From: Acidilobaceae archaeon
Lineage (GTDB): Archaea; Thermoproteota; Thermoprotei_A; Sulfolobales; Acidilobaceae
Length of the DNA: 64,000 bases
Direction: 5' to 3'
Assembly (NCBI GenBank): GCA_038897215.1
Contig: JAWAWX010000001.1
Span: 1,056,001-1,120,000, forward strand
The notes beneath the pieces were generated by a model. The model was not told the DNA's origin. It did not search any database and saw only the letters and a list, made by a program, of their open reading frames with translations. Below are positions 8,232 to 11,216 of the stretch, piece after piece. Position numbers and translations under genes: made by a program. How positions within the stretch are numbered: position 1 is the stretch's first letter; each line of letters starts with the position of its first letter.

Positions 8232-9539
8232 TTGAGAGCTAGAGTGTTTATTGAGACTTATGGGTGTGCTTTGGCTGAGTTCGAGTCTAGCGTTATGGAG
8301 GGTTTGTTGAGAGAGAAGGGGTTTGAGCTAGTGGGGAGTGTTGATTGTGCTGACGTCGTTATCGTTAATACCTGCTCTGTTAGGCTTGATACGGAGCAGA
8401 GGATAGTTAAGAGGATTCTCGAGATTCAGGAGTCTCGCTCGAGCGTCGGGCTGGTTATTGCTGGGTGCTTGGCTAAAAGCAGGCCTGGTCTTGTTGCCAG
8501 AGTTGCTCCTAGAGCTTCTATTCTGGCTCCTCAAGCAGTAGGTAGAGTCGTGGAGGCTGTTGAGGCTACTCTCTCGGGCGGGAGGCTTGTTGTTCTCGAC
8601 TCTGAGAGAGACTTCTGTAGAGTGCCCCCGGTTTCTCCACGGGGGGTTGTTGGCACTGTCATGGTTCAAGAGGGGTGTTTGAATGAGTGTAGCTTCTGTA
8701 TCACTAAGCTAGCTAGACCCAAGCTGGGGAGCTATCCTGTCAGCGTCGTAGTTGAGACTGTTAGGAGGCTTGTGGAGATGGGGGCTGTAGAGGTCAGGCT
8801 TACCGGGATGGATACTGGAGCCTACGGGCTAGACCTTCCGGGCAAGCCTACTCTAGCAGACTTGATTAGAGAGATCCTGGATAAAGTGGTGGGAGACTAC
8901 GTGATCAGAGTCGGGATGATGACCCCGGAGTCTGCTATAGAGATAGTAGACGACCTGGTAGACGCCTACAGAGACCCGAGAGTCTACAAGTACTTCCACA
9001 TACCCGTGCAGAGTGGAGACAACAAGATACTAAGAGCGATGGGGAGAAGGTATAGCGTAGAAGACTACAAGAGCCTCTACGAGAAGATAAGGAGCGCTTA
9101 TCCTGAAGCCATGATTGCAACCGACGTGATAGTAGGGCATCCTGGAGAAGACGAGGAGTCCTTCGAGAAAACTGTAGAGCTAGTCAGAGAGCTGGAGTTC
9201 GATAAAGTCCACATAGCCCAGTATACTCTAAGACCACACACTAGAGCACTAGCACTACCCCAAGTGCCCGATAGCGTGAAGAAAGAGAGGAGCACGAGGC
9301 TAACCAAGATAGTCGAGTCTATATGCTACAAGAAGCTATCGAGATACAGAGGGAGAATCGTAGAAGCTAGAGTAGTCGAGGAAGGCTTCAGAGCCGGGAG
9401 CCTAGTAGCTAGACTCGACAACTACACACCCCTAGTCTTGAGAGGAGGGAGAGAGCTCTTAGGTAAGAGAGTTAGAGCCCTTATCGAGGACAACACGTTC
9501 TTCGACCTCAGAGGCAGAGTCTTAGAGACCCTAGCCTAG
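8232..9539 (+). CDS. mtaB: tRNA t6A37 methylthiotransferase (archaeal MtaB/MiaB-like)
   Basis: ETYGC, NTCSV, AGC (UPF0004); CLNECSFC radical SAM; HIPVQSG; TRAM tail. Confidence 0.9.
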   Translation: MRARVFIETYGCALAEFESSVMEGLLREKGFELVGSVDCADVVIVNTCSVRLDTEQRIVKRILEIQESRSSVGLVIAGCLAKSRPGLVARVAPRASILAPQAVGRVVEAVEATLSGGRLVVLDSERDFCRVPPVSPRGVVGTVMVQEGCLNECSFCITKLARPKLGSYPVSVVVETVRRLVEMGAVEVRLTGMDTGAYGLDLPGKPTLADLIREILDKVVGDYVIRVGMMTPESAIEIVDDLVDAYRDPRVYKYFHIPVQSGDNKILRAMGRRYSVEDYKSLYEKIRSAYPEAMIATDVIVGHPGEDEESFEKTVELVRELEFDKVHIAQYTLRPHTRALALPQVPDSVKKERSTRLTKIVESICYKKLSRYRGRIVEARVVEEGFRAGSLVARLDNYTPLVLRGGRELLGKRVRALIEDNTFFDLRGRVLETLA

Positions 9540-9828
9540 AATACGCTCGGAGAGAGGAGAGCCACTCCCTCCCCCCTCTCCGCGTTCTCGCAAAACATGT
9601 ACAAGCTTTAGCTCATCGAAGCCGTGGAGACCGACACTTTGAGCTCTCGCCTACTCAGCCTAGGTGGAGGGCTTCACGTCTTTGGGCTCGATGGCTACAC
9701 GTGAGTCACGCTAGCGCTAAGACTGTAGCGAGTAAAGCAGAAGTCTCTTACGAGAAGACGTCAAAGAGTAGGAGCGAGTACACGGGAGCAGATGGGAGAG
9801 TGTGGAGGGCTCTCGGCTTCTCTTACCT

Positions 9829-9990
9829 CTACTCTTCTTCCTCCTCTTCTTCCCAGAACTCTTCCTCCTCTTCCTCCTCCTCCCAGAACTCTTCTTCTTC
9901 GTCGAACTCCTCCTCTTCTTCTAGCTCCTCTTCCTCCTCCCAGAACTCTTCCTCCTCTTCCTCTTCTTCTACGGGCCTCTTAGGGGGCAT
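9829..9990 (-). CDS. 53-aa poly-Glu microprotein with FW repeats
   Basis: MPPKRPV-E8-FW-E5-L-E5-FD-E4-FW-E8-FW-E7-stop; GAGGAGG RBS; TATATATA at 10030-10037. Confidence 0.75.
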   Translation of the reverse strand: MPPKRPVEEEEEEEEFWEEEEELEEEEEFDEEEEFWEEEEEEEEFWEEEEEEE

Positions 9991-10029
9991 TTCCTCCTCA
10001 CTCTCGGGTTTCTGGCTTAGAGGTCTAAG

Positions 10030-10037
10030 TATATATA
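10030..10037 (-). promoter_or_regulatory. TATA box of acidic microprotein gene
   Basis: TATATATA about 40 nt upstream of ATG 9990. Confidence 0.55.
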
Positions 10038-10142
10038 GTTTCTAGCTAGAGCTCTCCCTCGTAGGGCTAGAGTCTGATTCTGGAGGTTTACGAGTTCAAG
10101 AGGGTTCCATCGATTGCTCTCGATAGGAGAGAGCTCTCCCTC

Positions 10143-10961
10143 TTGCTCGATGCCTGCAGGAGAGGGAGCGGGCTGGTTAGAGTAGACTTGGGTCTTAGAG
10201 AGGCTAGAGTCTCGGAGTCGGGGGGCTTTTGTAGAGTCTCATCGGGTATCTTCGAGGCTTCTGTGAGGCTTGGTGATGTAGAGGAGGCTGTTGAGGAAGC
10301 CGGGGAGAGAGATGTTATCGTGGTGCAGGCTTCAGGAGAGCTGGTGGTAGCTGAGATTAGAGGAGAGCACTACTACAGGCTAGTTTCTCTAGGCGAGACT
10401 GCTCCAACGCTGGAGATCGACGGGATCCACATGCATAGAGTATCCGAGACCACTCCCTGGGCTGATGCCGAGCTCAAAGTGAGACTAGCGGGAGTAAGGA
10501 GAGGCTACAGAGTGCTCGATGTCTGCACGGGTCTAGGCTACACTGCTATACACTCTCTACTCAGAGGAGCTACTAGCGTTACCACGATAGAGGTCGATGA
10601 GAACGTGTTGACTCTAGCAGAGCTAAACCCTTGGAGTGAGCTCCTAGGAGACCCTAGAGTAGTCTTGATTAAAGGAAACGCTGTAGAGGTCGTCGGGGAG
10701 CTCAAGGGAAGCTATCACGTAGTGATACACGACCCCCCGCGGTTCGCGTCCTCCACGGGAGAACTCTACAGCGTGAGCTTTTACAGAGAGCTCTACAGGC
10801 TTCTAGCAAGAGGAGGGAGGCTCTTCCACTATACTGGAGAGCCTGGGAGAGCGAGAGGAGCCCAGTTCCCCTCACGAGTAGCCTCTAAGCTCGAGGAGGC
10901 TGGGTTCAGAGTTCTGAGATACGACTCGAGAGCTCTAGGAGTAGTAGCGGTCAAGCTCTAG
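10143..10961 (+). CDS. archaeal SAM-dependent methyltransferase (COG2521-like)
   Basis: PTLEIDGIHMHR, VLDVCTGLGYTA, HDPPRF. Confidence 0.85.
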   Translation: MLDACRRGSGLVRVDLGLREARVSESGGFCRVSSGIFEASVRLGDVEEAVEEAGERDVIVVQASGELVVAEIRGEHYYRLVSLGETAPTLEIDGIHMHRVSETTPWADAELKVRLAGVRRGYRVLDVCTGLGYTAIHSLLRGATSVTTIEVDENVLTLAELNPWSELLGDPRVVLIKGNAVEVVGELKGSYHVVIHDPPRFASSTGELYSVSFYRELYRLLARGGRLFHYTGEPGRARGAQFPSRVASKLEEAGFRVLRYDSRALGVVAVKL

Positions 10962-11051: not shown

Positions 11052-11216
11052 ATGCAAGGAGGCTTTGAGATCATCGAGGAGTACGTGAAGCACGGAATGA
11101 GGAGATTCAAGGTGAGAGTAAAGGGGACTAACTTAGTCCTAGACCTTCACGCAGACAACGCTGAAGAAGCTCTCAAGAGAGCCGAGGAGATGGCTAGGAG
11201 AATCATGAGACTCTAG
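11052..11216 (+). CDS. 54-aa hypothetical protein (below ORF-track cutoff)
   Basis: MQGGFEIIEEYVKHGMRRFKVRVKGTNLVLDLHADNAEEALKRAEEMARRIMRL; GGAG RBS, A/T-rich promoter-like element near 11001-11014. Confidence 0.7.
   Translation: MQGGFEIIEEYVKHGMRRFKVRVKGTNLVLDLHADNAEEALKRAEEMARRIMRL

Follow-up and report, generated by a model that had tools for sequence, protein, structure and literature searches.

A predicted glutamate/aromatic microprotein of Thermoproteota whose gene is uncoupled from ABCE1 in the Acidilobaceae

RESULTS

The micro-ORF and its expression signals

We have analyzed a 64,000-nucleotide stretch (the window) of the genome of an Acidilobaceae archaeon, contig JAWAWX010000001.1, and report here on a small open reading frame (ORF) on its minus strand. 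This micro-ORF occupies 9829-9990 (-), starting with the ATG at 9990 and ending with a TAG at 9829-9831 that is included in the coding sequence; its assignment as a gene draws on the ORF listing, on syntenic in-frame orthologs and on codon-level constraint. It would encode a peptide of 53 amino acids, MPPKRPV-E8-FW-E5-L-E5-FD-E4-FW-E8-FW-E7, in which the Glu run begins at residue 8. With 37 Glu and 1 Asp, acidic residues fill 38 of the 53 positions, and there are 3 Trp, 4 Phe and 1 Leu. The calculated mass is 6977 Da, with a net charge of about -36. No other stop-to-stop frame in the complete 1,159,524-bp genome has 13 or more Asp/Glu in any 20 residues, and the microprotein would be the most acidic product of that genome.

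The micro-ORF is preceded by a Shine-Dalgarno-like element, GTGAGGAGG, at 9993-10001 (-), which ends 2 nt before the ATG and has the core GAGGAGG at 9993-9999. Further upstream there is a palindromic TATA-like box, TATATATA, at 10030-10037, for which no strand is assigned. It lies 40-47 nt upstream of the ATG of the micro-ORF and 34-41 nt upstream of the conserved N-terminus of a divergently transcribed methyltransferase gene. Being about equidistant between the two divergent genes, it is possibly a shared, bidirectional promoter element. The frame, the GAGGAGG ribosome binding site and the upstream box are all exactly as described in the sequence-only reading that preceded this work. Comparable signals recur in the family described below. 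By a crude regular-expression search a Shine-Dalgarno-like element lies no more than 16 nt from the start in 33 of 51 members, and TATA-like boxes are located 20-55 nt upstream in 35 of the 51.

Selection acts on the encoded peptide

The frame is conserved in relatives, and a lack of such conservation is what the sequence-only reading had named among the grounds for its own refutation. A genome of the same genus carries a 46-amino-acid ortholog, MPRKRV-E9-FW-E5-FD-E4-FW-E7-FW-E7, in the same place and orientation, and in a second genus a 65-amino-acid version lies between the same two neighboring genes. When loci around the downstream neighbor, a MiaB-like gene, were surveyed, an acidic ORF was found at 19 of 30, in genera g1, g7, g9, g13 and g15. 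A genome-wide search with a poly-Glu pattern revealed members at other positions in genera g3, g6, g10, g11 and g14; in g4 part of a member stands at the end of a contig, and g5 probably has one too.

Repeats of GAR (R being A or G) are open in all frames and on both strands, so openness itself proves nothing, and the tract contains many GGAGG words. It could on these grounds be a noncoding purine-rich DNA or RNA element, acting as a sponge of Shine-Dalgarno-like GGAGG words or as a structural repeat, in which the open frame is incidental. We have examined this using 53 distinct family tracts pooled from the order, comprising 2266 codons. The Glu codons are GAA 842 and GAG 897 (1739 GAR), against 1 AAR, 1 AGR and 9 GGR. 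Variation between A and G is thus confined to codon position 3, and since that position is free and positions 1 and 2 are fixed, the constraint is on Glu and not on purines. A purine-rich element would tolerate changes to AAR, AGR or GGR, and their near-absence therefore argues against it. The codons that are not Glu almost all encode Trp, Phe, Tyr, Leu, Ile or Asp (W 189, F 89, Y 20 and L about 99, with just 2 K/R), and these interruptions (TGG, TTC, TAC, CTN) fall in a single frame across more than 50 divergent tracts. The ATG with its basic N-terminus and the position of the stop codon are conserved. Near-identical pairs of family members differ by 45 synonymous and 6 nonsynonymous codon changes, and in one pair (L069 and L070) the peptide tract is identical with 13 silent changes. 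Selection spans the whole peptide, down to its last aromatic pair and the Glu run at its end. Moreover, GAA is enriched in the micro-ORF relative to genome usage, which lowers the number of GGAGG words. We therefore regard the noncoding element as largely refuted, and essentially excluded. The interval 9829-9990 (-) is very probably a real, selected and translated gene, with translation indicated by the pattern of selection. We conclude that the micro-ORF has the character of a genuine protein-coding gene of this hot-spring archaeon, under purifying selection at the level of the amino acid sequence.

Because a GAR tract lacks stops in all frames, two further frames are open at the locus. A 114-amino-acid poly-Ser frame runs from 9701 to 10045 (+) on the opposite strand. 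This is a mirror artifact, since the complement of GAR codons is free of stops, and the constraint fits the Glu frame only. On the same strand as the micro-ORF a shifted frame at 9720-9920 (-) reads 67 residues of poly-Lys/Arg/Ser from stop to stop, and a ribosomal frameshift on the GAR tract would swap a polyanion for a polycation.

Codon choice within the tract

The micro-ORF uses 16 GAA and 21 GAG codons. The GAA share of 43% compares with 17% in the long ORFs of the genome (3,233 GAA against 15,962 GAG, the latter 83%), with a binomial P = 1.5e-4. Across the family GAA and GAG are interleaved more than expected, with identical neighbors at a frequency of 0.448 versus 0.521 ± 0.013 on shuffling. 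The longest run of one codon is 3 in the micro-ORF, and the family mean is 2.9 versus 4.3 for shuffled tracts; in both measures none of 1000 shuffles gave a value as low. These figures are most simply read as selection against homocodon repeats prone to slippage, or as a division of the load over two tRNAs; for Glu the genome encodes both tRNA-Glu(UUC) and tRNA-Glu(CUC). Either reading points to an old, translated tract rather than a recent microsatellite. The mixed codons had earlier been taken as a sign that this is no simple microsatellite, and the short same-codon runs, together with the in-frame position of all interruptions, bear this out. The interleaving shows how a near-homopolymeric coding tract can stay stable over long evolutionary times.

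In the same genome ARAGORN in default mode finds 40 tRNAs, including tRNA-Phe, and lists no tRNA-Trp. The tRNA-Trp gene probably contains an intron and was missed by that mode.

A family spread across the phylum

A back-translated EEEWEEE pattern matches in 140 of 251 genomes sampled across the phylum, versus about 3 control hits, and in 160 of 301 genomes of the order, where about 15 genomes have a match to the reversed-pattern control. Typically several matches cluster at one locus. The ORFs at these loci are 26-60 amino acids long, for example MLWF-EEEW-EEEW-EEEEW-EEEEW-EEEEW and MKRF-E4-W-E7-L-...-E10-W. The members share typical, rather than formally defining, features: a free-standing ORF of some 25-70 codons, more than 70% Asp/Glu, and acidic runs of about 3-10 residues broken almost solely by aromatic or hydrophobic residues, Trp being prominent among these. 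The micro-ORF of the window fits all of these. Short basic N-termini such as MPPKRPV, MPRKRV, MTAKKRW, MARRKF and MKRF are found through the family.

The Acidilobaceae members form a variant within this family. They are longer, with a median tract of 48 residues versus 34 elsewhere, and they are richer in Phe/Tyr and poorer in Trp (a W fraction of 0.06 versus 0.16). Their best-conserved element is E5-(F/Y/L)W-E5-10 near the C-terminus. The Acidilobaceae tracts end in E in 22 and in F in 7 of 32 cases; in other families of the order the end is W in 15 and E in 5 of 20. The window micro-ORF ends in E7, lacking a C-terminal aromatic residue. The syntenic ortholog L007 and the relocated member L061 end in Phe, and some members beside ABCE1 end in Glu. 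A terminal aromatic residue therefore varies within the clade and is not universal.

Sequence scores carry little weight for a composition of this kind. Even the 93%-identical ortholog of the same genus gives a composition-corrected E = 4e-5, and a large database returned no matches. Common descent is argued instead from chains of synteny, shared architecture, the typically single copy per genome and the existence of intermediate forms, and is not provable by scores. We take the micro-ORF to be the Acidilobaceae form of a phylum-wide and essentially unannotated family of Glu/aromatic microproteins, typically encoded by one gene per genome.

Uncoupling from ABCE1

In the phylum sample the micro-ORF most often lies directly before the gene for the ribosome-recycling ATPase ABCE1. 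It is found some 60-150 nt upstream and co-directional at 18 of 24 loci. In the sample from the order this position is occupied at 4 of 30 loci, and so it is frequent in the family without defining it. Within the Acidilobaceae the association has been lost. In the genome of the window the ABCE1 gene (603 amino acids) is preceded, with a 22-bp gap, by the gene for methionine aminopeptidase, and no acidic ORF was found within 1.5 kb of ABCE1 at any of 30 Acidilobaceae loci. Where copies on the ABCE1 side are absent, copies beside the MiaB-like gene or at other sites are present, so that a relocated copy replaces the ABCE1-side copy and does not add to it. In one genome (G059) there are two MiaB-like genes, at L062 on contig C45 and at L136 on contig C7, each with a convergent acidic micro-ORF; either the gene pair has been duplicated, or the bin is mixed, the stated contamination being about 3%.

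The downstream neighbor in the window is a MiaB-like radical S-adenosylmethionine (SAM) tRNA ms2t6A methylthiotransferase gene at 8232-9539 (+), with UPF0004, radical SAM and TRAM domains. It matches NCBIfam TIGR01578 with 373 bits, against a cut-off of 314.7 bits, and has support from Pfam. It is convergent with the micro-ORF, and the two stop codons are 290 nt apart. In five genera of the Acidilobaceae, and also in two further families of the order, the gene downstream is convergent and separated from the micro-ORF by 3-50 nt. We considered the 290-nt spacer at 9540-9828 as a noncoding RNA or a mobile element and dropped the idea: it is not repeated elsewhere in the genome, resembles nothing in related loci, and shows neither a C/D-box pattern nor an Rfam match.

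The micro-gene is thus uncoupled from ABCE1 in the Acidilobaceae. With its own TATA and Shine-Dalgarno signals and a convergent gene next to it, it forms a free-standing transcription unit. This arrangement bears on the possibility that the act of translation is itself the function. An acidic nascent chain could trigger intrinsic ribosome destabilization (IRD), so that the ORF would sense ribosome stability or recycling capacity much as the MgtL leader senses Mg2+ in bacteria; the ORF would be an ancestral leader of ABCE1 and the peptide a by-product. In bacteria, in yeast and in a human system, translation is aborted by acidic stretches that fall in the first ~40 residues (PMC9718836, PMC12673854, PMC11162784). 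The Glu run starts at residue 8 of a short ORF, and most members in the phylum lie 60-150 nt upstream of, and co-directional with, a ribosome-splitting ATPase, so that the proposal is attractive for the ABCE1-linked members. However, the next gene is convergent in the window, as it is in five or more genera of the Acidilobaceae and in two further families, which leaves the micro-ORF with no target in cis, and purifying selection persists along the whole peptide nonetheless. The conserved Trp spacing, and the C-terminal Trp of other lineages, are not requirements for IRD, and no avoidance of N-terminal Asp/Glu was seen in the one archaeal proteome mentioned, that of Pyrococcus furiosus (PMC9718836). 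Taken as the whole explanation, a function in the act of translation is improbable. A role as a leader peptide or upstream ORF cannot explain retention in lineages where there is no ABCE1 neighbor and the downstream gene is convergent. As the gene is not solely a leader of ABCE1, its product probably acts in trans.

The divergent methyltransferase and other neighbors

On the other side of the micro-ORF, and divergent from it, is a gene at 10071-10961 (+) for a class-I SAM-dependent methyltransferase of UPF0020 (RNA-methylase) type, the most stable neighbor of the micro-gene in the Acidilobaceae. Its ortholog in the same genus matches PDB 8vyd, 'SAM-dependent methyltransferase, UPF0020 family', with E 3.8e-50, and there are weak matches to generic methyltransferase families of Pfam. 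The divergent pair is found in six Acidilobaceae genera, g1, g7, g9, g13, g14 and g15; in g14 it is kept where the MiaB-like gene has been replaced by another gene. The start of the methyltransferase is unusual. The frame opens after a TAG at 10068-10070 and reads SLILEVYEFKR..., aligning with the MxxxExYEF start of the orthologs. The first ATG, GTG or TTG is a TTG at 10143, 24 codons in, and there is no canonical start for the conserved N-terminus. Either translation begins at a CTG or ATT, or this genome encodes a truncated N-terminus.

The microprotein might be a substrate or partner of this enzyme, for instance through reversible methyl-esterification of Glu that would tune its charge. The pair is kept in the six genera even when the other neighbor changes, and a single palindromic TATA box lies about equidistant between the two genes. 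Yet the pairing is restricted to one family, the micro-gene exists through the phylum without it, and the enzyme resembles RNA methylases and is not basic (pI ~6 for the 272-amino-acid form). We consider such a partnership very improbable. Prediction of a complex between methyltransferase and microprotein gave an ipSAE of 0.00 in two runs, performed without control runs, which speaks neither for nor against binding.

A second proposal touches this neighbor. The microprotein could be a counter-ion reservoir, a soluble polycarboxylate buffering Mg2+, K+ or the long and branched polyamines that hyperthermophiles contain, with the aromatic residues incidental or an aid to solubility. It has 38 carboxylates in 53 residues, and the methyltransferase has a below-threshold match to a polyamine aminopropyltransferase (NCBIfam PRK03612, E 1.3e-13, 50 bits against a 472-bit cut-off). 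Its best match, however, is to an RNA-methylase-type fold and not to spermidine synthase. Neither conserved aromatic pairs nor a conserved basic N-terminus nor a fixed length would be called for in a buffer, and one small gene is a costly provision compared with free glutamate. A reservoir function is accordingly distinctly improbable.

Two further observations concern the surroundings. At 11052-11216 (+) in the window there is a 54-amino-acid ORF, MQGGFEIIEEYVKHGMRRFKVRVKGTNLVLDLHADNAEEALKRAEEMARRIMRL, conserved at the same position in the genome of the same genus. It has a weak PurS-like match (E 0.07) and no Pfam family above threshold, and is probably another small real gene. At three loci from genera g11 and g3 (L108, L109 and L117) the micro-ORF has a third recurrent context. 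It is followed 70-160 nt downstream by a co-directional conserved protein of ~273 amino acids (...NLKFTLFKVLNALKHFYSFKELEERLGV...), and a protein of ~181 amino acids is encoded upstream and divergently.

Basic partners and predicted structure

The sequence-only reading had proposed a disordered polyanion with aromatic anchors, which might act as a nucleic-acid mimic or as a chaperone for basic chromatin proteins such as Cren7 and Alba. The composition holds across the family, the interruptions being aromatic or hydrophobic. Disorder gained nothing from AlphaFold2, which returns a single helix over residues 5-52 with a pLDDT of 91, a prediction not to be trusted for poly-Glu. The helix is possibly the conformation of a bound state, and at most that. 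An amphipathic helix or coiled coil was dropped as a candidate structure, since the aromatic residues of the predicted helix are spread over 40-280 degrees of the wheel and form no single stripe.

For the chromatin partners we find no link. Among 81 Thermoproteota loci, no poly-Lys micro-gene or very basic protein lies within 1.5 kb on either side of the micro-gene, apart from 3 spurious frames. The most basic tracts of the genome were also considered as partners; they are far from the micro-gene and no link was found. Among these tracts is that of a 140-amino-acid protein at L137:1650-2072 (+), equivalent to G000:C1:65649-66071, which has an acidic N-terminus and an extremely Lys-rich tail (...KKAKKKKTSKKAKKKTGKKAKTEG). 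We take this protein to resemble the crenarchaeal RNA polymerase subunit Rpo13.

A broader form of the same idea is that the microprotein is a general polyelectrolyte chaperone or nucleic-acid mimic that would escort Cren7, Alba, free ribosomal proteins or single-stranded DNA-binding protein, with no specific tie to ABCE1 or translation factors. It would work as prothymosin-alpha does on histone H1, or like DSS1 mimicking single-stranded DNA on OB folds. A charge of about -36 on 53 residues, with the non-acidic positions almost exclusively aromatic or hydrophobic, fits such a role, as does a single copy per genome with strong expression signals. The variable gene context across families is expected of a general factor, and the gain in polyelectrolyte affinity with temperature (PMC10576128) would suit a thermophile. 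On the other hand, a chromatin gene or basic protein is adjacent in none of the 81 loci, no DSS1 or prothymosin profile is matched, and the position before ABCE1 across the phylum is left unexplained. We consider a general chaperone or mimic unlikely.

Annotation and database status

The sequence-only reading called the ORF unannotated, and our searches agree. Exact look-up of 18 sequences (the micro-ORF, its mirror frames and 15 relatives) found no entry in a collection of 15 billion proteins. The ESM Atlas holds the 53-amino-acid sequence letter for letter; a feature search there gave a best score of 0.84, to bacterial hypothetical proteins and below lead level. An hmmscan of the micro-ORF and two relatives against Pfam-A found no family at E <= 1, including the DSS1 and prothymosin/parathymosin profiles, and NCBIfam gave no family for the same three sequences. 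A homology search of protein databases produced 315 word-sharing candidates, none of which was scored because the composition correction of HMMER removes everything; this search is uninformative on relatives. A scan of 9300-10300 with Rfam gave noise only.

DISCUSSION

The selection on its codons and its persistence away from ABCE1 make the micro-ORF a strong candidate for a functional small protein. The lineage studied here provides a natural experiment, in that the gene survives under purifying selection after losing both the ABCE1 neighborhood and any co-directional downstream gene. Survival without ABCE1 or a target in cis argues for a trans-acting product over a mere leader ORF. That this product would act by charge combined with aromatic anchors is reasonably probable.

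A mechanism can be envisaged in which the Glu runs provide long-range electrostatic attraction and release of counter-ions, giving binding that would be strengthened by temperature. Polyelectrolyte interactions underlie complexes of highly charged disordered chains, which can gain affinity as the temperature rises (PMC7661507, PMC10576128). The Phe/Tyr/Leu-Trp pairs, above all the last before the terminal Glu run, would insert into hydrophobic pockets, stack on Arg/Lys or make cation-pi contacts, and the chain may turn helical when bound. The putative target would be a basic or hydrophobic surface of ABCE1, of the ribosome or of a stalk-dependent factor. The translation apparatus is the likeliest target because the ancestral site fronts ABCE1 and the relocated site is among tRNA- and RNA-modification genes. 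Indeed the recurrent genomic associations are solely with translation and RNA genes, namely ABCE1 phylum-wide, and the methylthiotransferase and RNA-methylase-type enzyme in the Acidilobaceae. Resting on synteny, the assignment of translation machinery as target is tentative, and we hold it with some reserve. Our leading explanation overall, a trans-acting polyanion with aromatic anchors operating most likely on the translation apparatus, has a chance that we place a little short of even.

A number of points weigh against this explanation. The link to translation is one of synteny alone, in archaeal genomes that are dense in translation genes, and the gene context differs between families. The micro-ORF has no C-terminal aromatic residue, ending in E where 15 of 20 tracts outside the Acidilobaceae end in W, which weakens an analogy with the tail of the ribosomal stalk. 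Homology of the long Phe/Trp form with the short Trp forms is not provable in sequence of such low complexity. Acidic runs at the N-terminus cause translation to abort in bacteria and in eukaryotes (PMC9718836), making the yield of full-length peptide uncertain, and that the micro-ORF is translated at all is read from the pattern of selection.

A bolder view is that the Glu/aromatic microprotein is a nearly universal and overlooked trans-acting component of the translation cycle of Thermoproteota. It might mimic the ribosomal stalk tail in free form, or compete with it, and so tune ABCE1- or GTPase-dependent steps, or it might couple ribosome stability to recycling. In terms of a role in the translation cycle, the Acidilobaceae arrangement would be one where the microprotein works without being encoded beside ABCE1. 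We regard this view as quite unlikely.

The implications are of some breadth. Provided that the peptide is made, a polyanion of 3-7 kDa under strong selection is present in many archaea and absent from protein databases, since such ORFs are discarded by gene callers and low-complexity filters. The ancestral site before an essential ribosome-recycling ATPase suggests an unrecognized player in archaeal and, by extension, eukaryote-like translation. We found no paper describing a family of Glu/aromatic microproteins. Molecules of this kind, acidic adaptors or chaperones of small size that carry aromatic anchors, are known in eukaryotes from DSS1 and prothymosin-alpha; the archaeal family, its breadth and its link with ABCE1 are, as far as we have found, not described in print. 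What the window adds is the relocated, free-standing Acidilobaceae form and the evidence at the level of codons.

Comparison with known systems

DSS1/Sem1 (PF05160) is an acidic adaptor of eukaryotes, ~70 amino acids long and with conserved Trp/Phe, whose targets are OB folds and the proteasome lid. The microprotein is similar in size, its acidic runs are punctuated by conserved Trp/Phe that are possible anchors, and action in trans on larger machines is proposed for it too. Unlike DSS1, it has a far higher Glu content (70%) and its genes are linked with ABCE1 and RNA-modification genes rather than with those of recombination or the proteasome; the DSS1 profile is not matched.

Prothymosin-alpha, in its complex with linker histone H1 (PMC7661507, PMC10576128), is likewise a small and extremely acidic chain without a fold of its own, and the charge-driven binding with counter-ion release that we propose would be of the same kind. 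It has almost no aromatic residues, in contrast to the conserved aromatic pairs of the microprotein. There is no sequence relationship between the two (no Pfam match at E <= 1) and no basic partner beside the gene in the 81 loci, and the microprotein is archaeal, in a host without linker histone.

IRD sequences and the MgtL leader (PMC9718836, PMC12673854, PMC11162784) share with the micro-ORF a very short frame whose acidic run starts in the first 10 codons, and family members front the gene of a ribosome-splitting ABC ATPase. They differ in that the window micro-ORF has no co-directional downstream gene and is selected over the whole peptide, including its C-terminal half; IRD, moreover, is not known from archaea.

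The C-terminal tail of aP1, a stalk protein of archaea, binds ABCE1 nucleotide-binding domain 1 (NBD1), aEF1A and aEF2, and enters the hydrophobic pocket of NBD1 through L103, L106 and F107 as an induced helix (PMC6125642). Genuine aP1/aP0 tails at two of our loci (L132 and L135) end in GLGGLFGF or GLGALFG. Unlike aP1 the microprotein is free-standing and not tethered to the ribosome, has no N-terminal dimerization domain and no LxxLF(G) end motif, terminates in seven Glu, and would bind ABCE1 only putatively. What it has in common with the stalk tail is a flexible stretch rich in Glu with hydrophobic or aromatic residues after it, in a family encoded directly before ABCE1.

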